32,000 bases of DNA, from NCBI RefSeq assembly GCF_000020225.1, contig NC_010655.1, positions 60,001-92,000 on the forward strand, given 5' to 3'. The position numbers were made by a program, and so were the translations under genes. Within the stretch, counting starts at the first letter, position 1. Every line of letters starts with the position of its first letter. This document shows, one piece after another, positions 4,669 to 27,824 of this stretch. Below the pieces are notes generated by a model, which saw only the letters and a list, made by a program, of their open reading frames with translations, was not told the DNA's origin and searched no databases. This DNA comes from Akkermansia muciniphila ATCC BAA-835. GTDB taxonomy: Bacteria > Verrucomicrobiota > Verrucomicrobiia > Verrucomicrobiales > Akkermansiaceae.

Positions 4669-6170
4669 GTGCGGGGGACGCAAGAGAAGGCATCATACGC
4701 GGCAAGGCGGCACGCGCCCGCCTGGGCGGAAAACTTGCCGGACTATCCCTGCCCCGGCAAATCGCCGTGATTGCTTTCTGGCCATTCCTGGAACAGCTGC
4801 TGAGCTTTTTCGTCACCTCGTCCGACCTTTTCATCGCCACTAAAATAGGGGTGGACGCCCAGGACACCATCAACATCTCTGACGGCATGGGCGCCGTCGT
4901 CTTCATCATGTGGTTCGGCTTCGTCATCCAGGGGTCTATCATGATGGGAGCCACAGCCATCGTTTCCCGCATGACGGGCGCCAGGGACTATCCCCAGGCC
5001 CAGCATGGCCTGCACCAGGCCGCCATGCTGGGGCTCCTGGCAGGAACCATCTCCTGCGGACTTCTCTTCACATGCAGCGATTTCCTGGTCACGCACGTAC
5101 TGACCATGAATGAAACCGCCCGGGCCTACGCCCTGCAATACGTTTATATGGCCGCATTTGCGGCCCCGTTCAGCGGCGTGGTCTTTGCCATCAATGCCGC
5201 CCTGCGAGGCTCCGGAGACACGCGGCTTCCCTTCTGGATCATGATGAGCGTAGGCATCCTCAATGTCATCTTCAGCGTCATCTTCGTCTTTGCGGACGCT
5301 CCTCTGGGCGGCTGGCGCATCGGAGGAATTGCGGCAGGAACGGTCTGCGGCTACGGCATCAGCATGTGCATCCTGCTGTTCATCATGCTGCGGCGCAGAA
5401 AAAAAATCTTCACGGGCAGGAAAAATGAATCCCTGGAAGAACTTGTCCGGGAACGGGGAGAACACTATGCCCCGCCCCTGTACCTCAGCTTTTCCCATCT
5501 GCGGCCGGACATGGGCATGCAGAAGCGCATCCTGAAAATCGGGCTGCCGCAGGCCGTGGAAGTCTTCGGCATGTGGGGCATCCAGATGTTCTGCCTTTCC
5601 ATCATCAGTGAACTGCCTGTTAAAGGCGTGCTGGGCGTCCACAATATTGCCGTCCGCATTGAATCGCTCAGTTTCCTGCCCGGCTTCGCCATCGGCATGG
5701 CCGCTTCCACGCTCGTGGGGCAATACCTGGGCGCCCGGAACGCGCTTATGGCCCGCATCACCATCTGGAAATGCATGCGGTACGCCGTCATCTTCATGAC
5801 AGGCCTGGGAGTGCTCTTCAGCGCCTTTCCCGCCCTGTTCATGGAGATATTTTCCAACGGCAGCACGACCCTCATTGATACCGGAATCCCCGTGTTGCGC
5901 ACCATGTTGGTGGTGGAACCCTTCTTCGCCGCCTGCATCGTGATGAAAATGTCCCTGCGCGGCGCGGGAGACACCCGGAGAGTCATGCTTATTTCCTACG
6001 GCATTATGGGCTTTTTCCGGGTCGTCTGCACCTGGGTATGGTTCAGGCTGGCACCGGAAACCATGACTTTGTGGGGCATCTGGCTGGTTTTCGCCTTTGA
6101 AATGGCCGTTCAATCCGCCATCCTCTATAAAATCGTCAAGGGGCGGAGCTGGACGAAGCTGCAAGTCTGA
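4665..6170 (+). CDS. MATE-family efflux transporter
   Basis: About 500 aa with about 12 hydrophobic segments and an internal two-fold repeat. It has MATE-like motifs (..AAPFSGVVFAINAALRGSGDTRLPF.. and ..MKMSLRGAGDTRRVM..). I prefer the ATG at 4665, which overlaps the ubiE stop (ATGA), over the ORF-track start at 4596. Confidence 0.85.
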   Translation: MSAGDAREGIIRGKAARARLGGKLAGLSLPRQIAVIAFWPFLEQLLSFFVTSSDLFIATKIGVDAQDTINISDGMGAVVFIMWFGFVIQGSIMMGATAIVSRMTGARDYPQAQHGLHQAAMLGLLAGTISCGLLFTCSDFLVTHVLTMNETARAYALQYVYMAAFAAPFSGVVFAINAALRGSGDTRLPFWIMMSVGILNVIFSVIFVFADAPLGGWRIGGIAAGTVCGYGISMCILLFIMLRRRKKIFTGRKNESLEELVRERGEHYAPPLYLSFSHLRPDMGMQKRILKIGLPQAVEVFGMWGIQMFCLSIISELPVKGVLGVHNIAVRIESLSFLPGFAIGMAASTLVGQYLGARNALMARITIWKCMRYAVIFMTGLGVLFSAFPALFMEIFSNGSTTLIDTGIPVLRTMLVVEPFFAACIVMKMSLRGAGDTRRVMLISYGIMGFFRVVCTWVWFRLAPETMTLWGIWLVFAFEMAVQSAILYKIVKGRSWTKLQV

Positions 6171-20687: not shown

Positions 20688-23234
20688 ATGATCTCATCCT
20701 TTCCCAGAATTCTGATCTTTCTGATGATGGCAAGCCTGCATGTATTCGCGGAAGACATGCAGAAAAACAGGGAACGGGAAGCCGCCCGCGCAGTCATCAT
20801 GCGGACCGTGCCGTCTCTGGCCGCCTCCCCGGAAAAACTGCACCTGGAAACCATTGAAAAAGAAGACGGATATGATGTTTTCGAGACGAAAGCCTCCGGA
20901 GGAGTGCTGACGATCCGGGGAAGCAGCGGCACAGCCCTTTGCCGGGGATTCTATGATTTTCTGAAAACGAACCGTCTGGGAATGGTATCCTGGGAAAACA
21001 AAGACATTCGCTGGCCGGCACAGCTGCCGGACACCGCGCCGCGCCGCATCGTTTCTCCTTTCCGCAACCACTATTATTTCAATGTGGTCACCTATGGATA
21101 CACGATGCCCTACTGGACCTGGGAACGCTGGGAAAAGGAAATAGACTGGATGGCTCTGCACGGCATCAACATGCCCCTGGCTCTGGTTGCCACGGAGGGG
21201 ATCGCCGTCCGGGTCTGGAAGCAACTGGGGCTGACGGAAAAAGAAATAGAAGAATTTTACACGGGGCCGGCCCATCTTCCCTGGCAGCGGATGGGAAACA
21301 TCGTCAATCATGACGGCCCCCTGCCCGCCAGCTGGCACAAGGAACAAATCGCCCTGCAGCACCGCATCCTGCACAGGATGAAATCCTTGGGCATGACCCC
21401 CATTTGTCCCGCTTTTTCCGGTTTCGTTCCCCGGGGAATCCTCCGCCTTTATCCGGAAGCGAAGCTTCACCGGCTGGGGTGGGGAGGCTGGCCTCAAAAA
21501 AACCACGCCCATTTTCTTTCTCCGGAAGAGCCCCTTTTCCTTAAAATAGGACGCCTGTACATGCAGGAATGGCAGAAGGAATTCGGAAAAAACACCTATT
21601 TTCTTGCGGACTCCTTCAATGAAATGGAACTTCCCGAAAACAAAGGAGGCGTCGAAGCCCGCAACAATATGCTCAGCTCCCTCGGGGAACAAATCTACCG
21701 CTCCATTTCCTCCACCAACCCGGATGCGGTATGGGTCATGCAGGGATGGATGTTCGGATACCAGCGCAATATCTGGAACGCAGATACTCTGAAGGCTTTG
21801 CTCAGCAAGGTTCCGGACGATAAGATGCTCCTTCTGGACCTGGCGGCGGATTACAACAAGACTTTCTGGCGCAACGGCATGAACTGGGACGTCTTCAAGG
21901 GTTTTTTCAATAAACCGTGGGTTTACAGCGTGGTTCCCAACATGGGCGGCAAATGCGCCATGACCGGGGTAATGGATTTTTACGCCAACGGCCATCTGGA
22001 AGCCTTGAACTCTTCATCCAGGGGGCGCCTCTCCGGAATGGGCATGGCCCCGGAAGGAATAGAAAATAACGATGTGATCTACGAACTGATCACGGATGCC
22101 GCATGGAGGAACCGCCAGGAAAACGTGGAACAATATCTGGAAAATTATTGCCGTGCCCGATACGGAAATTATCCGGACAGCATGAAGGAAGCCTGGAATC
22201 TGTTCCGCCGCACAGCCTATTCCAACTTAAAGGACCATCCCCGTTTCAACTGGCAAATGAAACCCGGCACCCGCGGCTGTTCCGTAAACACAAGCGAAGA
22301 TTTTCTGAAAGGCCTCTCCCTGTTCGTCAACACCCGCGGCCTGGAACAATCCCCCCTGTTCCGCCAGGATGCCGTTGAGATGGCAGTCCATTATCTTGGC
22401 ATACGCATGAATGAAGCCATCCGGGCCGCCCAGGAAGCTCTGGACGAACAGGATCAGGAAAACGCGGAAAAATGCATGGCCTATTTCCGCAAATACGCCC
22501 TTCTGGCAGATTCCCTTCTGGAAGGGCACCCCACCTGGAGGCTGTCGCGCTGGATATCGTTTGCCCGGTCTCACGGAACTTCTCCTGAGGAAAAAAACAA
22601 GTATGAACAAAACGCCAGAAGGCTGGTGACCAGATGGGGGCCTCCCGTAGACGACTACGCCGCCAAAATATGGAGCGGCCTTATCAGGGACTACTATCTG
22701 CCGCGCTGGGAACACTTTATTCAGAGCCGTCTTTCCGAAAAAAATCCGGATATGGGAGCATGGGAGGAAAAATGGGTCCGTTCCACTGGCGTAAGCGCTG
22801 CGCACGCTCCCGGAGATCTGGTCAACGCCTGCCGCCAGGCTATCCGGGAGGCGCCGCCCCTGCCTTCTTCCCTGAAAAGAAAAGCAGCCGGATCAATTAT
22901 AGGAAACTGGACCTCCGCGACGGTATCCACGGAATGGAGTTATCTGGACTGGCCCGTTTCTTCCGCTGATCTTGAAAAACTCCGGGGGGTGCGCTTCGTC
23001 TTCACTTCCGGCAGCCATGCCCTAGAAATAGACGGCGTCGAACTCCTGGAAAACGGCAAAGTAATCGCCCACGACCGGCACGCCGGATTGGCAGGCAAGC
23101 CTTCCCGCGGGAATTTCTACAAACTTTCCCTTCCCAAGGGAATCCATGCCAACAACGGATGCTCCCTCAGAGCCAGGGTCCGCTCCGTGGGCGGAAAATC
23201 CTCCAATGGGAAACTGGAACTGATTAAAGAATGA
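20688..23234 (+). CDS. Secreted GH89-family alpha-N-acetylglucosaminidase (NAGLU-like) with an extra C-terminal beta-rich module
   Basis: 848 aa. Signal peptide MISSFPRILIFLMMASLHVFA. NAGLU-type core is present: YYFNVVTYGYTMPYWTWERWEKEIDWMALHGINMPLA, GPAHLPWQRMGN, FSGFVP, ADSFNEM, WVMQGW, VPNMGG. The last roughly 130 aa look like a carbohydrate-binding module. Confidence 0.85.
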   Translation: MISSFPRILIFLMMASLHVFAEDMQKNREREAARAVIMRTVPSLAASPEKLHLETIEKEDGYDVFETKASGGVLTIRGSSGTALCRGFYDFLKTNRLGMVSWENKDIRWPAQLPDTAPRRIVSPFRNHYYFNVVTYGYTMPYWTWERWEKEIDWMALHGINMPLALVATEGIAVRVWKQLGLTEKEIEEFYTGPAHLPWQRMGNIVNHDGPLPASWHKEQIALQHRILHRMKSLGMTPICPAFSGFVPRGILRLYPEAKLHRLGWGGWPQKNHAHFLSPEEPLFLKIGRLYMQEWQKEFGKNTYFLADSFNEMELPENKGGVEARNNMLSSLGEQIYRSISSTNPDAVWVMQGWMFGYQRNIWNADTLKALLSKVPDDKMLLLDLAADYNKTFWRNGMNWDVFKGFFNKPWVYSVVPNMGGKCAMTGVMDFYANGHLEALNSSSRGRLSGMGMAPEGIENNDVIYELITDAAWRNRQENVEQYLENYCRARYGNYPDSMKEAWNLFRRTAYSNLKDHPRFNWQMKPGTRGCSVNTSEDFLKGLSLFVNTRGLEQSPLFRQDAVEMAVHYLGIRMNEAIRAAQEALDEQDQENAEKCMAYFRKYALLADSLLEGHPTWRLSRWISFARSHGTSPEEKNKYEQNARRLVTRWGPPVDDYAAKIWSGLIRDYYLPRWEHFIQSRLSEKNPDMGAWEEKWVRSTGVSAAHAPGDLVNACRQAIREAPPLPSSLKRKAAGSIIGNWTSATVSTEWSYLDWPVSSADLEKLRGVRFVFTSGSHALEIDGVELLENGKVIAHDRHAGLAGKPSRGNFYKLSLPKGIHANNGCSLRARVRSVGGKSSNGKLELIKE

Positions 23235-23559
23235 ACGGCTTAAATTCAGTTAGAATTATCCACTTTAGGTTTGACAAATATCACCAAAATTAACTTATAA
23301 ATAGTCATAAATTATTTTGAATTAAAATAGATCTATATTTCAACCATTGTAAGTCAGATCTTCTACATCAAGGGAACGATTTTTGAAAACATCTATCTTG
23401 ACTTATGTATGTTGTTGTATGCAGATAAATCATCTACACGAAGTATATTGCACTAGATACACAAAGCAATGGAGAAAGAGGAATACAAGTAAATATTTGA
23501 AGCTATTATTAAAGTGAACGAAAACCATGTAGTGGATAAACCTTGCTAAGACAATAAAC

Positions 23560-23781
23560 ATGGAGAAACAAATGGATAAGGATGACGAAAACAAACCAAA
23601 GACAAAACGAGGCAAGAGGACATACACAACTACTTTGATTGGGGCGAAAGAATATAATACCGAAAAAATCCATGCAGTAATTTCAAATTTTAACAAACCC
23701 GACAATCTATTAAGTGGAAAACAATATCTCAATATTTCCAAAAAAGTTCGCAAAAAAATAACATCCATAATAATTGACTAA
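23560..23781 (+). CDS. Hypothetical small basic protein (73 aa) at the left end of the islet
   Basis: Lys-rich ORF (MEKQMDKDDENKPKTKRGKRTYTT..). Its purine-rich sense strand is typical of AT-rich coding DNA. There is no recognisable motif and no clear RBS. The overlapping antisense ORF 23430-23768 looks like a shadow. Confidence 0.3.
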   Translation: MEKQMDKDDENKPKTKRGKRTYTTTLIGAKEYNTEKIHAVISNFNKPDNLLSGKQYLNISKKVRKKITSIIID

Positions 23782-23949
23782 TCTTCAGTCTACAACATAC
23801 TTGATAAAAAAGGAATGTGCTTTTATGTAGTTGAAAATTGACCATTCCGTAACTTTTTCTCTTGAAAGCAGGATACACATGAATGGAATTGAGAGCTTTT
23901 GAATACTGTTCACAATGGTTTTTGATAAATTGGCCGAGTTGTTCGTGGC

Positions 23950-23978
23950 TTGATAATTTTAGAAGATGGTATTATAAT
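23950..23978 (+). promoter_or_regulatory. Sigma-70-like promoter candidate for the methyltransferase (TTGATA-N17-TATAAT)
   Basis: TTGATA at 23950-23955, an exact 17-nt spacer and a consensus TATAAT at 23973-23978. It lies 39 nt upstream of ATG 24017. Motif match only. Confidence 0.5.
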
Positions 23979-24016
23979 TCTTGACATCTATTTTCGTACT
24001 AACTAATCACACGTCC

Positions 24017-25335
24017 ATGCAGGAAGCAGGAAGCAGGAAGCAGGAAGCAGGAAGCAGGAAGCAGGAAGCAGGAAGCAGGAAGCAGGAAGCAGGAAGCAGG
24101 AAGCAGGAAGCAGGAAGCAGGAAGCAGGAAGCAGGAAGCAGGAAGCAGGAAGCAGGAAGCAGGAAGCAGGAAGCAGGAAGCAGGAAGCAGGAAGCAGGAA
24201 GCAGGAAACGCTTCCTCTCCAATGTGATGATTTCGAATTAACTAACGAATATCTAGATTATTTATCAGAGCAAATAATCACATATATAGGAAACAAGCGA
24301 TCCCTGCTTGATTTTATAGGAAAAGGGATAGAAGTGGTTTGTAAGAGGTTGGGAAGGAACAAAATAAGCAGTTTGGATGCTTTTTCTGGTTCTGGGGTGG
24401 TTTCCCGATATTTGAGACGCTTTTCTTCAAGCCTCCATTGTAACGACTTGGAAGATTATTCAAGGGTTATCAATGAGTGCTACATGACCAATGAATCTTC
24501 TGTAGATATTATCTTGCTTAAAAACGAGCTATCTTGCCTTCATAAAAGAATTGAAGAATCTTGGCATGAAGGAGTTATTACAAAAATGTATGCTCCTGCC
24601 GATGAAGATAATATAACACAAAATGATAGGGTTTTCTACACAAAAAGGAACGCTATGTACATTGATACAGCAAGGCAAGCGATTGATGAACTTGCTCCTG
24701 ATCTAAGAAAGTTCTTCTTGGCTCCACTGTTGTATGAAGCCTCTGTGCACAACAATACATCAGGTGTTTTCAAGGGGTTCTATAAAAATCACGAAGGGAT
24801 TGGGCAGTTTGGGGGACATGGGAAAAATGCACTAAAACGCATATTGGGAAATATTGAACTGAAACTCCCTGTTTTTTCTCGATTTGATGTTGACTGCTAC
24901 ATTCACCAACAGGATGCACGACAACTAATGGAAACAATACAGGCGGTTGATCTTGCATATTTTGACCCTCCTTATAACCAACACCCCTATGGCTCAAATT
25001 ATTTCATGCTCAATTTAATAGCAAATAATAAAAAACCACTGTCATTTTCCCGAGTTTCTGGAATCCCTGACGACTGGAACCGTTCTCTCTATAATAAACG
25101 CCAATCAGCTCAGAATGAATTGTTTTCAACCGTCCAAGCCTGCCCCGCAAAGTTCATCCTAATATCTTATAATTCAGAGGGATTTGTGAAATACAACGAC
25201 TTTATCAACTTCCTCTCCAAAATAGGTAAATTGCAATCCTTACAAACTGATTATAACACATTCAGAGGGTGCAGAAATCTTAACGAACGCCCAATAAAAG
25301 TTAAGGAATTCCTCTTCCTTGTCGAAAAATTCTAA
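24017..25335 (+). CDS. N6-adenine DNA methyltransferase (Dam/D12-like, motif I before DPPY), with its 5' end interrupted by the heptamer tract; ATG and enzyme body are out of frame as sequenced
   Basis: The enzyme frame is open from 24007 to 25335. It encodes ..EQIITYIGNKRSLLDFI.. (24268-24318), motif I LDAFSGSGVV (FSGSG at 24382-24396) and motif IV FDPPYN (DPPY at 24964-24975). The C-terminal motif is FILISYNSEG. The only upstream ATG (24017) enters the repeat in a different frame and terminates at TAA 24239-24241. The first in-frame start in the enzyme frame is GTG 24334, downstream of the conserved N-terminal motif. Confidence 0.8.
24019..24207 (+). repeat. Perfect tandem heptanucleotide repeat (GCAGGAA)x27
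   Basis: Counted by hand: 189 nt with 27 uninterrupted units. The G of ATG 24017-24019 is the first base of the tract. It is stop-free in all six frames: (AGSRKQE)n forward and (FLLPASC)n reverse. Confidence 0.98.
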
Positions 25336-26056
25336 TAGCCATCTCACTATGTCTCATAAAATTGCATTGCGTACCCAGCGGGAAGGTACAATTATTAATA
25401 CTACTTCATCCAAGCAGGAAAAATTATTACGTCAAGCTGTGAAATCTGTTTCTATGCGTCTGAAAAAGAAATTTCCCGGAATCACCCTTGAATGGGAACC
25501 ACAAGCTAAATTGATAGATATTATTGTCCACCTTCGAACCCAATTCCCTGATGTTGACTTTGCAGCCCCCTCGTGCGCTTCTTCAATGAAACCAGACGGT
25601 GGAATTCTTTATATGAAAAGTGAAGATGAACGGCGATTTCCTATCCTCATATCAGAAAAGAAAAACCAAGGTACAAATGATATGAGGGCAAAGGAAGGAA
25701 AAAAAAGACAAGCTCAGGGGAATGCCATAGAAAGATTAGGAAAAAACGTCATTGGTTTCCGAGCTTCCATGATTAGAGAGTCAATTTTTCCCTTTGTTTG
25801 TTTTGGAGATGGTTGTGATTTCGTTGAAGGTTCATCCATAAGAGACCGTGTCATCACCATAGCCATGTTCGGTCAGCTCAACAAAGAATATGTTTATGCT
25901 CAAGGTCGAGGAGAACTTTTTAACAGGGGATCTTTCTATTTCCGAGAAAAACAATGGACTGAACAAGAAATGGCAGACATCTCGTTCTCTATAGCCAGCA
26001 AAGCCATCTTCTATTATTTTTCCAGATATGGAGAATCAACTTTTTTCGATAATTGA
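25319..26056 (+). CDS. EcoRI-family Type II restriction endonuclease
   Basis: It matches the EcoRI sequence as I recall it. SSMKPDGGILYMK..ILISEKKNQG corresponds to SSIKPDGGIVEVK..VLVAEAKHQG (PD..E.K catalytic motif; D at 25595-25597, E at 25655-25657). QAQGNAIERLGKNV corresponds to AAGNAIERSHKNI (extended-chain recognition motif, 25718-25735). FPFVCFGDGCDF corresponds to FPYVLFLEGSNF. The start is either TTG 25319 (overlaps the MTase stop; N-terminus MSKNSNSHLTMSHK resembles EcoRI MSNKKQSNRLTEQHK) or ATG 25349. Confidence 0.8.
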   Translation: MSKNSNSHLTMSHKIALRTQREGTIINTTSSKQEKLLRQAVKSVSMRLKKKFPGITLEWEPQAKLIDIIVHLRTQFPDVDFAAPSCASSMKPDGGILYMKSEDERRFPILISEKKNQGTNDMRAKEGKKRQAQGNAIERLGKNVIGFRASMIRESIFPFVCFGDGCDFVEGSSIRDRVITIAMFGQLNKEYVYAQGRGELFNRGSFYFREKQWTEQEMADISFSIASKAIFYYFSRYGESTFFDN

Positions 26057-26368
26057 TTGGAGCACATTTTTAAAATTATTCAAAAAATATTCTAGATTTT
26101 AATATTTAGCAAATTACTCAGATGAAAAAACAGAGAAGCTCAATAAAACTAGACTAAAATAAACAATCTCGATATTTTACAGAGAATTTCGACTCAAAAC
26201 GTTCAAAATCAGTCGATTTTAAATTAAATAATTCTGAATTTAATTTGCTTATTAGGAAAAACCACATCCATTCCGTGCCTTTTACGTTAGAAAATTCCGC
26301 CGTCCGAACCAGGAAACAGCATGCCCGGCGCCTTGCGGAATCCCCGCACGGAACAATCGGGCGGAAAG

Positions 26369-26737
26369 TTACATTTCGAACCGGTGCAGGTTTTCCACAT
26401 GGGAATAACCCATCTTCCTGAGCGCTTCCAGCGCCTTGTCCGCTCTCTTTCCCGTACGGCAATACAGCATAATCACGGCGTTCTTATCGGGAAGAAGCCG
26501 GGGGGCCAGTTGTTCCACCTCATCTGCCGGAATATTCAAGGCGCCCTCCTTATGTCCCGTGCGGTACTCATCCAGAGTCCGGACATCCACCAGCACAACA
26601 GGACGCGCGGCGGCGCCTTCCGGAGACACAACCATGGCGGAGGAAGCAGGGTCACGTTCCGCATTCCTGCCTTTCAGCCAAACGAAGAGGGCCGTCAGCC
26701 CGGTCACCATGACCACGTACAAAACCACGTTTTTCAC
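26369..26737 (-). CDS. Membrane-anchored single-domain rhodanese (sulfurtransferase)
   Basis: 122 aa with an N-terminal TM segment (VVLYVVMVTGLTALFVWL). Rhodanese motifs are present: LVDVRTLDEYRTGHKEGALNIP and the active-site loop YCRTGKRA. Confidence 0.8.
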   Translation of the reverse strand: MKNVVLYVVMVTGLTALFVWLKGRNAERDPASSAMVVSPEGAAARPVVLVDVRTLDEYRTGHKEGALNIPADEVEQLAPRLLPDKNAVIMLYCRTGKRADKALEALRKMGYSHVENLHRFEM

Positions 26738-26885
26738 GCGGCCACTTCACTAAACCGCGGCGAAGTAATCAAGAGAAAACAACGCCCTGCCCACATGCGC
26801 AGGCGTCATTTGCCGCCCACGCAGCACCGGCGGCTCCGTTCCACGGGAAAACAATGCGCCGGATACAGAAGAAATACGCAGAAGC

Positions 26886-26911
26886 GGGAAGGGACAGAGC
26901 TTTCCCTTCCC
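26886..26911 (-). terminator. Hairpin 3' of the FAH-family gene (terminator candidate)
   Basis: 9-bp stem GGGAAGGGA (26886-26894) / TCCCTTCCC (26903-26911). On the minus strand it is followed by a moderately T-rich GCTTCTGCGTATTTCTTC. Confidence 0.4.
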
Positions 26912-26945
26912 CCTCCACATTCAACAAGGCCGGAGAACCATTCCC

Positions 26946-27824
26946 CTACCCCTCATCATCAATTACCACAGCCTGGGAAGCGAAGCCAAAAGCGGGGCTT
27001 CCCCATTCCACCACATCCCCGGGTTTCAAATATACCGGAGGCTTCATCCCCATCCCCACGCCTCCCGGAGTGCCGGTGGAAACCACATCTCCGGGCCATA
27101 AAGTCATGAACCGGGAAACATAGGCAATCAGACGCGGAACAGGCCAGATCAAGCCGTCCGTATTGCCGCTCTGGCGCACTTCCCCGTTCACTTTCAATTC
27201 CAGAGGAATGCCGGAGCCGTCCCCAAGTTCATCAGCGGAAATGAACGTGGGCCCCATCGGGGCAAAGCTGTCATAGCTCTTCCCCTTGGTCCACTGCCCG
27301 CCATGTTCCAGCTGGTTGGCCCTTTCCGAATAGTCGCACATCAGGGTATAGCCGCTGATAGCCCGTGCGGCCTCCTCTGGGGAAGCGTTTTTCAGCACAT
27401 CCTTAATCACTACGGCCAATTCAATCTCATAATCCAGCTTGTCGCAGCCGGGCGGATACAAAACAACATCACTGCAGGAAGTAATGGCGGAAGGCGACTT
27501 CAGAAAAACAGCCGGTTCCTGCACGGAATCCCCGTCAAACTCCTTCGCATGGTCTGCATAACTTTTTCCCAGGCACACCAGCTTGGAAGGGGAACAGGGC
27601 AGCGCGGTATCAATCATCCATTCAGGGTTGACAGCTTTGGCGGCGGCACTATCCAGAAACGCGACAATGCGCTTCATTTCCTCTCCGCAGGAACCCGTTT
27701 CTCCGCAAATGCAGGCATCAGCCTCGGCAAGCACGGAGTCCGCCGCCAGGTATTCCCCGCGGCTTTCGCTCCACAGAGCCATGATGCGCTCCGCCTGGTC
27801 ATTCAGGTAAAATCTGATCTTCAC
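26946..27824 (-). CDS. Fumarylacetoacetate hydrolase (FAH) family protein
   Basis: 292 aa. Contains CLGKSYADHAKEF, PAVFLKSPSA, DYEIELAVVI, and WPGDVVSTGTPGGVGMG..YLKPGDVV, which is typical of the FAH / 2-keto-4-pentenoate hydratase fold. Confidence 0.85.
   Translation of the reverse strand: MKIRFYLNDQAERIMALWSESRGEYLAADSVLAEADACICGETGSCGEEMKRIVAFLDSAAAKAVNPEWMIDTALPCSPSKLVCLGKSYADHAKEFDGDSVQEPAVFLKSPSAITSCSDVVLYPPGCDKLDYEIELAVVIKDVLKNASPEEAARAISGYTLMCDYSERANQLEHGGQWTKGKSYDSFAPMGPTFISADELGDGSGIPLELKVNGEVRQSGNTDGLIWPVPRLIAYVSRFMTLWPGDVVSTGTPGGVGMGMKPPVYLKPGDVVEWGSPAFGFASQAVVIDDEG

Follow-up and report, generated by a model that had tools for sequence, protein, structure and literature searches.

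A repeat-switched DNA methylase paired with an EcoRI-family nuclease gene in a strain-variable island of Akkermansia muciniphila, with an orphan paralogue as probable safeguard

A low-GC island with a methylase and a nuclease gene

The window analysed here, a 32-kb stretch of the genome of Akkermansia muciniphila ATCC BAA-835, contains a strain-variable genomic island of approx. 3.0 kb (positions 23246–26261), located between a GH89/NAGLU gene and a rhodanese gene. The GC content of the island (36–42%) differs markedly from that of its flanks (55–60%), and genomes devoid of the island align with the window up to position 23245 and resume from position 26262. The NAGLU gene is directly followed by the rhodanese gene, with no island, in 9 of 10 distinct complete-genome places retrieved through LeuA. 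This 3-kb island, predicted to encode a Type IIP restriction-modification pair, was probably acquired by horizontal transfer. The window belongs to a strain of the type-strain clade, and its best protein hit (P0121, 100% identity) points to A. muciniphila. All genes and motifs given by position below lie on the forward strand.

Upstream of the methylase gene, the island features a small lysine-rich ORF of 73 amino acids (23560–23781) which many assemblies annotate as a gene. No Pfam match was found for the small ORFs of the island, and a controller (C) protein among them was for this reason dropped as a candidate. The best sigma-70-like promoter match (TTGATA-17-TATAAT, 23950–23978), 39 nt upstream of the methylase start, agrees with the consensus at 11 of 12 positions; it is a match to the consensus, of which the whole region contains 14, compared to 10.0 ± 3.8 in shuffled sequences.

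The body of the methylase gene (24208–25335) encodes a D12-class (alpha) N6-adenine DNA methylase with a predicted RA(m6A)TTY specificity, which scores 65.4 bits against Pfam MethyltransfD12 (PF02086; gathering cutoff 22, E = 8.7e-18). Motif I (FSGSG, 24382–24396) lies 194 codons N-terminal to motif IV (DPPY, 24964–24975), an arrangement of the D12 class, and both motifs are present exactly where an earlier note, made from the letters of this DNA, had placed them. All 94 invariant columns of the 26-member family are retained, including those that lie between motifs I and IV.

The adjacent downstream gene (25349–26056) encodes a predicted EcoRI-family Type IIP restriction endonuclease of 235 amino acids, an assignment drawn from Pfam, fold and homologues. 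The protein scores 56.3 bits against Pfam EcoRI (PF02963; gathering cutoff 22) and hits the chains of EcoRI crystal structures (E = 6.6e-13), with the PD (25592–25597), E.K (25655–25663) and GNAIER (25718–25735) motifs aligned. EcoRI is also the sole PDB fold match of its AlphaFold model (pLDDT 80.8; Foldseek, E ~1e-14, TM 0.72–0.75), the next-best match having E>0.03, and the protein retains each of the 69 columns that are invariant among 30 homologues. Profile score, fold and the PD..(D/E)xK residues thus place the protein in the EcoRI family, and its description as a stand-alone EcoRI-fold nuclease with intact PD..E.K and GNAIER motifs is borne out by both sequence and predicted fold.

Likeness to EcoRI itself (PDB 1ERI, 1CKQ) extends over the whole length of the fold, the PD..E.K catalytic motif and the GNAIER recognition segment, with which EcoRI reads AATT. 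Unlike EcoRI, the window nuclease is about 40 residues shorter, at ~22% identity, and the alignment puts Gln at the two EcoRI residues flanking A138, just before GNAIER. Its partner is an alpha-class DPPY methylase, whereas that of EcoRI is M.EcoRI, and its specificity is probably the degenerate RAATTY.

Methylase and nuclease have thousands of relatives each at ~60% identity, often both on the same contig. Of 80 sampled species genomes, 11 carry the nuclease gene immediately after a gene of this methylase family, in one case (L047) as a pseudogene, and the methylase is an orphan at the remaining 69 loci. The pairing, which had been considered unusual, is therefore a widespread cassette.

Switching of the methylase by a heptanucleotide repeat

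The ATG start codon of the methylase gene (24017–24019) contributes its G as the first base of a heptanucleotide repeat, (GCAGGAA)x27 (24019–24207). TRF reports 27.0 copies of the unit with 100% matches (score 378), and the 32-kb window holds no other long tandem repeat. A unit of 7 nt, not divisible by 3 and situated inside an ORF just past its start codon, is characteristic of SSR contingency genes. At n=27, translation from ATG 24017 proceeds in frame 2 (ORF 23981–24241) and ends at a TAA (24239–24241), and the third frame, which is the other OFF frame, ends at a TGA (24225–24227); the stops at 24227 and 24241 proposed for the OFF frames are thereby confirmed. The methylase is ON only at n = 1 mod 3. 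The gene of the window is OFF, because at n=27 its body (frame 1) is out of frame and devoid of a usable start before GTG 24334, which falls past the conserved YIGNKR motif. Proteins of ON alleles are on record (P0245, P0252 and P0254), with the N-terminus M-(QEAGSRK)n-QETLPLQ...

The proposal that the repeat switches the methylase is upheld by the alleles of other strains. Repeat copy numbers from 3 to 28 are seen across A. muciniphila genomes with identical flanks, with ON alleles (n=4, 13 and 16) and OFF alleles (n=3, 5, 8, 9, 12, 14, 17, 26 and 27) in DNA that is otherwise identical. Over 9.4 kb of flanks with 0 mismatches, for example, n is 27 in CP174100.1, 26 in CP071807.1, 17 in CP027005.1 and 4 in strain An78. 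Genome CP027006.1, with 1 mismatch in 7.2 kb, is ON (n=16) and the near-identical CP027005.1 OFF; CP198990.1 (n=26) has in addition a separate 700-bp deletion downstream. Trustworthy copy numbers come from complete or high-quality genomes alone (27, 27, 26, 26, ~28, 17, 16 and 4), and short-read assemblies, which are broken, gapped or possibly collapsed at the tract, yield no unbiased ON:OFF ratio. A repeat number that varies among otherwise identical genomes and brings the gene in or out of frame is the mark of a contingency gene. The tract is hypermutable, and the switching of the methylase by this SSR is real. Repeat units gained or lost by strand slippage would shift the gene among one ON and two OFF frames.

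The long tract is specific to the A. muciniphila island allele. No SSR longer than A8–9, (AG)6 or (CCG)5 was found in other family members at 80 loci, and the nearest relative of the window methylase, the orphan P0122 (81% identity), carries merely a two-unit proto-repeat, AGCAGGAAGCAGGAG. P0123 is a mosaic allele.

Long repeats can promote slippage, and it is conceivable that the OFF gene is leaky, with enough methylase to protect the genome arising through slippage of RNA polymerase or ribosomes on the repeat or from near-cognate starts (ATA 24274, ATC 24277 and ATA 24286). NCBI annotations of OFF alleles do use non-canonical starts (P0121, MGNKR...; P0246, MITYIGNKR...). Such starts, however, are annotation heuristics and not evidence of translation, and proteins begun at the near-cognate codons would lose the invariant residues L19 and Q22 together with part of the conserved N-terminal motif. 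With GTG 24334 as the first canonical start past the upstream stop, we give this explanation hardly any credence.

Besides the window, at least 15 loci combine an intact nuclease gene with a methylase that is out of frame, and the pair is not a canonical self-contained Type II restriction-modification module, in which the adjacent methylase is always on. All loci examined (>30), ON and OFF alike, have an intact nuclease gene, which is at least 99.7% identical across all ON and OFF loci compared. If A. muciniphila did not express the nuclease, or if the enzyme lacked catalytic activity there, the state of the methylase would be irrelevant; genomes in the OFF state are viable and often found, and loss of the nuclease is frequent in the family, as seen from the 69 orphan loci and the pseudogene in L047. 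An intact gene in each of more than 30 loci, the retention of the PD..E.K and GNAIER motifs and of every invariant column, and a confidently predicted EcoRI fold all argue against a dead enzyme, which we consider highly unlikely.

The junction between methylase and nuclease genes

The best start of the nuclease gene had been proposed to be TTG 25319, preceded by AGGA (25304–25307), such that methylase stop and nuclease start would overlap. The nuclease ORF is indeed open back to this TTG. However, no paired relative has an extension homologous to the in-frame segment 25319–25348: the counterpart of ATG 25349 (MSHK...) is the nuclease start in each of the 10 paired relatives that are intact, several of them leaving no room for an N-terminal extension, and TTG 25319 was rejected as a start on the basis of their aligned junctions. 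Similarity of the TTG-started extension to EcoRI residues 5–16 is likewise not backed by the family. The AGGA carries little weight because no Shine-Dalgarno motif was found before any host gene in the window, and start reasoning based on such motifs was dropped. With ATG 25349 as start, the two genes do not overlap in the window but are 13 nt apart (methylase stop, 25333–25335). In the 10 intact paired relatives, the ATG of the nuclease lies at most 14 nt ahead of the methylase stop and at most 12 nt behind it, and tight junctions of this kind are a family trait.

The genes are co-directional, with the nuclease ATG 13 nt past the methylase stop, and all ten junctions of the relatives, from 14-nt overlap to 12-nt gap, have the geometry of coupled translation. 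Synthesis of the nuclease may then depend on ribosomes that finish the methylase ORF, by termination-reinitiation and with no Rho-dependent polarity; methylase and nuclease would switch together, and a second methylase would be unneeded. Ribosomes in the OFF frames stop ~1.1 kb upstream of the nuclease gene, which would suit coupling as well as polarity, and polarity would also be favoured by C-rich, G-poor stretches at 24952–25050 (20–21 C versus 5–6 G per 80 nt) of the kind preferred by Rho. Several points speak against such dependence. The overlap created by TTG 25319 is not conserved, and the missing Shine-Dalgarno motif before the nuclease gene does not imply a need for upstream ribosomes in a window whose host genes do without one. 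A promoter-like site in the 3' part of the methylase gene (CTGACG-17-TATAAT, 25067–25095), which is a 10/12 match to the consensus 254 nt before the nuclease gene, could make the nuclease independent of the methylase. Moreover, coupling is seldom absolute, even slight leakage of nuclease would put DNA with about 1.5 RAATTY sites per kb at risk, and the orphan paralogue described below makes coupling unnecessary. We therefore regard coupling as an unlikely sole explanation; coupling or polarity may act on the nuclease as an added layer, which is not needed.

An orphan paralogue and tolerance of the OFF state

According to the mEnrich-seq preprint (10.1101/2022.11.07.515285), from whose Supplementary Table 3 its sequences were taken, M.AmuORF1905P mediates RA6mATTY methylation in A. 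muciniphila and is conserved in 112 of 112 isolate genomes; the RAATTY assignment is that of REBASE, second-hand via this preprint. M.AmuORF1905P and the window methylase are 56% identical over 358 residues with 0 gaps, and each variant of the former is present on at least 1000 recorded contigs. Both enzymes belong to the same D12-class family, with the same motifs and host species, and strain An78 (GCA_002161325.1) possesses both the core methylase and the island in the same genome, a cross-match made in this single strain, which is ON; the other island-bearing accessions looked for do not occur in Supplementary Table 3 of the preprint. Unlike the window methylase, which is part of a strain-variable island and has a nuclease partner and a 27-unit SSR, M.AmuORF1905P is encoded by a core gene followed by that of a XerD-like recombinase, with neither nuclease partner nor repeat tract; no EcoRI-like gene was found within 5 kb of it. 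For the genome of the window itself, the presence of the orphan gene rests on the 112/112 statement, on An78 and on the identity of the window to type-strain-like genomes.

A second member of the family, Cj0208 of C. jejuni (M.CjeNI/CtsM), makes RA(m6A)TTY (PMC3526280). It differs from the window methylase in being an orphan that is not phase-variable, and it provides the self-DNA mark for natural transformation (PMC10046745), a role not known in Akkermansia. Cj0208 is 51% identical to the window methylase, and the two RAATTY enzymes, at 55% identity, are no closer to each other than either is to the window methylase. The C. jejuni family member is located after thrS-infC, like Cj0208. Full-length homology to RAATTY-assigned members places the window methylase in this family, and the family taxa (Campylobacter, Treponema, Spirochaetes and Akkermansia) coincide with taxa listed as RAATTY-methylated. 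Identity of ~55% does not by itself guarantee identical specificity for the island methylase.

Given a methylase of the RAATTY family and a nuclease with the EcoRI fold, we take the system most likely to be an isoschizomer of the ApoI type, which would cut RAATTY, or some of its forms such as GAATTC, when unmethylated. It resembles the Type IIP systems ApoI, XapI and AcsI (R^AATTY), to which it is likened by description, in inferred recognition sequence and in separate methylase and nuclease. We know of no phase-variable methylase in any of these three. The window shows no avoidance of RAATTY sites (49 observed versus 57.7 ± 7.2 expected), and protection is therefore needed. In gut metagenomes, 94.1% of A. 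muciniphila RAATTY is methylated (PMC12118455), and some sites are merely partly methylated in a probiotic strain (PMC11741434); such sites would be endangered by an active nuclease if that strain carried the island.

The explanation we favour, and hold to be probable, is that of an ApoI-like (RAATTY) Type IIP island whose own SSR-switched methylase is redundant. The constitutive orphan M.AmuORF1905P, in every A. muciniphila genome, would methylate RAATTY genome-wide. With the chromosome protected in advance by this paralogue, the OFF state would do no harm, and the island methylase would be free to act as a contingency gene or to drift. This supposes a common specificity of island methylase, nuclease and orphan methylase, and a nuclease that is both made and functional. 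The combination of an OFF methylase with an intact nuclease, which the earlier note had called apparently suicidal, is thus probably not so. The second protecting methylase which that note had considered as a possible objection has in substance been found, in the paralogue that accompanies the island in An78, its RAATTY role coming via REBASE. One point against mere redundancy is that decay would be expected, yet apart from its frame the methylase ORF shows no damage, and the repeat is long and free of imperfect units; the island copies differ too little for a test of selection.

A further reading of the switch has two forms. The repeat may switch restriction and not methylation, with the orphan protecting RAATTY and the frame of the methylase ORF gating, by coupling or polarity, the nuclease gene that begins 13 nt past it; or extra methylase in the ON state may fill partly methylated RAATTY sites, and so give rise to the site-specific epigenetic heterogeneity reported for A. 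muciniphila. We consider this reading rather unlikely.

In Type III mod phasevarions and in the Type IIG gene cj0031 of C. jejuni, a methylase is likewise switched by frameshifts in an SSR inside the ORF, with a copy number that differs between isolates (PMC5909438, PMC4889913). There, however, restriction needs Mod or is fused to the methylase, and OFF is intrinsically safe, whereas the nuclease of the window is free-standing and safety probably comes from the paralogue; the heptanucleotide unit is also unusual. A phasevarion-like change of the methylome by ON/OFF switching is unlikely, because the paralogue, probably of the same specificity, would keep RAATTY methylated.

The apparent toxin-antitoxin paradox dissolves if a resident orphan methylase pre-protects the genome, and pre-protection would explain how the nuclease gene could enter and persist in a host where the methylase of the module is unreliable. 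Few Type IIP systems with a free-standing nuclease have a phase-variable methylase, and this locus would be one of them. The searched literature contains no report of SSR phase variation in Akkermansia, and as far as it shows this would be the first SSR contingency locus described in the genus. Akkermansia is a leading next-generation probiotic. Enrichment of A. muciniphila DNA from stool makes use of RAATTY methylation, which is independent of this island. An ApoI-like restriction barrier is probably present in strains of the type-strain clade and missing from most others, which matters for transformation and genetic tools. If the repeat does switch restriction, it would provide the population with a risk-free, phase-variable barrier to foreign DNA.

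Repeat tract and its variation among genomes

An island of low GC content (23246-26261; 36-42% versus 55-60% in the flanks) is flanked by the GH89/NAGLU gene (20688-23234) on one side and a rhodanese gene on the other. It carries the methylase body (M, 24208-25335) and the nuclease gene (R, 25349-26056), both on the forward strand. Directly after ATG 24017 stands the heptanucleotide repeat (GCAGGAA)27 (24019-24207), with all units perfect (TRF, 100% matches) and the sole long tandem repeat of the window. The frame of ATG 24017 terminates at TAA 24239-24241 and a third frame at TGA 24225-24227, the two stops that an earlier note had assigned to ribosomes in the OFF frames. M occupies the remaining frame, in which the first canonical start, GTG 24334, lies past the conserved YIGNKR motif. 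M is therefore OFF at 27 units; as read from the sequence, it would need a unit number n of 1 mod 3 to be ON. The best promoter-like match (23950-23978, 11/12) is located upstream of the tract. Also within the island, 5′ of M, is a Lys-rich 73-aa ORF (23560-23781, forward strand), annotated in many assemblies (66-73 aa), with no Pfam match and no resemblance to an HTH controller protein.

Proteins with 100% identity to the M body are annotated in Akkermansia muciniphila, and exact-protein look-up yielded more than 30 copies of the M-R locus. R is intact in every copy, and repeat number differs among them despite near-identical M and R (99.7-100% at the DNA level). Among complete or high-quality genomes, M is OFF in the window and CP174100.1 (n=27; 100% identity across 10 kb, flanks without mismatches), CP071807.1 (n=26, 0 flank mismatches with the window), CP198990.1 (n=26, flanks identical except for a 700-bp deletion downstream) and CP027005.1 (n=17, 0 mismatches); it is ON in CP027006.1 (n=16, 1 mismatch in 7.2 kb) and strain An78 (n=4, 0 mismatches). 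CP027005.1 and CP027006.1, which differ by one unit, are near-identical in size and at the M-R locus. The deletion in CP198990.1 (loci L004/L131), an otherwise identical complete genome, corresponds to window 26420-27119; the rhodanese gene is lost in it, together with the neighbouring end of an FAA-hydrolase gene. CP072050.1 (n ~28; locus L133, 6829-7026) is annotated with an in-frame 440-aa methylase, which is untrustworthy as an ON call since two imperfect units (GCGGAA, GCAGA) are probably long-read indel errors. ON proteins with the N-terminus M(QEAGSRK)nQE... are recorded in the database. Metagenome assemblies gave further values (n=3, 5, 8, 9, 12, 13, 14), of which the low ones may be assembly collapses, as many such assemblies are gapped at the tract. 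Copy-number variation of this kind is the hallmark of hypermutable contingency tracts.

The methylase-nuclease pair and its junction

M belongs to the D12 class (Pfam PF02086, 65.4 bits versus a cutoff of 22), and its FSGSG and DPPY motifs were found exactly where the earlier note had placed them. R matches the EcoRI family (PF02963, 56.3 bits versus 22), and the PD, E.K and GNAIER motifs previously recognized in it all align with EcoRI crystal chains (E=6.6e-13). The predicted AlphaFold structure of R, built from 30 homologues (pLDDT 80.8, pTM 0.82), had EcoRI as its sole match in the PDB (E ~1e-14, TM 0.72-0.75; next best E>0.03).

The pairing is not unusual, contrary to the earlier note. 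M and R each have thousands of relatives at ~60% identity, frequently on one contig. Scanning one genome for each species gave 80 methylase-family loci: in 11 an EcoRI-family gene comes immediately after the methylase in the same orientation (a pseudogene in one case), and in 69 the methylase is an orphan. Paired and orphan methylases are intermingled in a neighbour-joining tree, and the closest relative of window M (P0122, 81% identity) is an orphan in another Akkermansiaceae genome. These comparisons fit a single methylase family with the nuclease repeatedly gained and lost. The pseudogene, in Treponema (L047, ~5113-5200), directly follows the methylase, has a stop after 17 codons and may be an intermediate towards an orphan methylase. 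Two proteins without a repeat tract are almost identical to window M in part: P0123 over its C-terminal ~60%, apart from the last ~30 residues, and P0250 over ~290 aa in its centre. Their N- and C-termini come from another allele, and such mosaics suggest recombination among RAATTY methylase genes. The P0123 gene (L134, 3501-4601) may be part of a mobile element, as its neighbours are small ORFs on the same strand that match nothing in Pfam or PHROG, with no nuclease among them. A 57-aa "EcoRI family" fragment in the window-nuclease cluster (P0256), labelled Acinetobacter baumannii and sharing at least 90% identity with the nuclease of Akkermansia, is probably from a contaminant contig.

The nuclease start in each of the 10 intact paired relatives is an ATG homologous to ATG 25349 of the window (MSHK..., MAKK...), placed between a 14-nt overlap with the methylase stop and a 12-nt gap after it; in several of them an N-terminal extension would not fit. 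R in the window thus starts at ATG 25349, 13 nt after the M stop (TAA 25333-25335). The start proposed earlier, TTG 25319, which would overlap the end of M, is unsupported by these junctions. The AGGA preceding it means little, because Shine-Dalgarno motifs are absent from ClpB, NAGLU, LeuA and the window's other long ORFs. Tight M-R junctions are nevertheless a family trait, and translational coupling or polarity between M and R is possible as an additional layer: 1.1 kb of mRNA is untranslated in the OFF frames, and C-rich, G-poor stretches occur at 24952-25050, but the second-best promoter-like match (25067-25095, 10/12) lies inside M and could drive R independently. Two RAATTY sites, 25306-25311 (GAATTC) and 25327-25332 (AAATTC), are found in the end of M, 17-43 nt 5′ of the R ATG; they are not conserved in other paired loci, so control of R through their methylation is no more than speculation.

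Specificity and the orphan paralogue

The Campylobacter jejuni family member (L111) sits after thrS and infC, a position which we take to be that of Cj0208. Cj0208 (M.CjeNI, CtsM) makes RA(m6A)TTY (PMC3526280; PMC10046745). It is 55% identical to M.AmuORF1905P, the orphan methylase of A. muciniphila that is likewise assigned RAATTY; window M is 51% identical to Cj0208 and 56% to M.AmuORF1905P (358 residues, 0 gaps). Across 26 family members the stretch from motif I to motif IV is densely invariant, the taxa in which the family occurs (Campylobacter, Treponema, Spirochaetes, Akkermansia) coincide with those listed for RAATTY methylation, and the nuclease retains GNAIER, the AATT-reading segment of EcoRI. 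From these features we infer an ApoI-type system, specific for RAATTY or for part of these sites, for example GAATTC; in either case the nuclease would be blocked once the second A of RAATTY is methylated.

RAATTY is not avoided in the window (49 sites versus 57.7 +/- 7.2 expected), so that an active nuclease needs a methylase. The earlier note had considered M OFF with R ON suicidal. M OFF beside an intact R gene does occur, and the genomes bearing this combination are plainly viable, probably owing to a species-wide RAATTY methylase paralogue. REBASE, as quoted in the mEnrich-seq preprint, credits M.AmuORF1905P with the RA6mATTY methylation of A. muciniphila; the enzyme is conserved in 112/112 isolate genomes, and the methylation in each strain examined (10.1101/2022.11.07.515285). 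In gut metagenomes, 94.1% of A. muciniphila RAATTY is methylated (PMC12118455). NAGLU is followed directly by rhodanese, without the island, in 9 of 10 distinct complete-genome places fetched via the neighbouring LeuA, and Supplementary Table 3 of the preprint, from which the M.AmuORF1905P sequence was taken, includes an island-free genome, strain 139 (GCA_004319565.1 = CP036293.1). M.AmuORF1905P variants each occur on at least 1000 contigs. At its locus a XerD-like recombinase gene follows, and the surrounding 5 kb hold nothing EcoRI-like. This tyrosine recombinase gene (L029, 6279-7166; L030, 6116-7003) always lies 20-25 nt 3′ of the methylase gene, and the two products share one database protein cluster. 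In type-strain-sized genomes the island is found at 75-95 kb, adjoining a GH89 gene. Of the two such genes of ATCC BAA-835, Amuc_0060 and Amuc_1220, it is Amuc_0060 that suits this position, a long way from Amuc_1905. The orphan methylase gene and the island occur together in strain An78. A second methylase, such as the earlier note had suggested seeking, thus exists; it probably shares the specificity of M and protects the genome, in which case M OFF would not be suicidal.

A proposed cost-free switch

We propose that the resident orphan methylase keeps RAATTY methylated, and that a subset of strains acquired a restriction-modification island of the same specificity, whose own methylase would be redundant. 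A two-unit proto-repeat, still seen as AGCAGGAAGCAGGAG in the nearest relative P0122, could then have grown into a long tract that would flip the island methylase ON and OFF without cost. A comparable tract was found in no other family member (80 loci).

According to reviews, methylases that switch ON and OFF typically belong to Type III and Type I systems and have "limited representation" in Type II, where the main example is the fused Type IIG cj0031 (PMC13076061; PMC4889913). Our literature search turned up no report of phase-variable SSRs in Akkermansia. A study of epigenetic phase variation in A. muciniphila deals with Type I specificity genes that invert and with RAATTY sites that are methylated only in part (PMC11741434) and does not concern the GCAGGAA tract. 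The tract is a real contingency locus, apparently undescribed so far, and the paradox of a methylase switched OFF beside a nuclease left ON probably has an ordinary solution.
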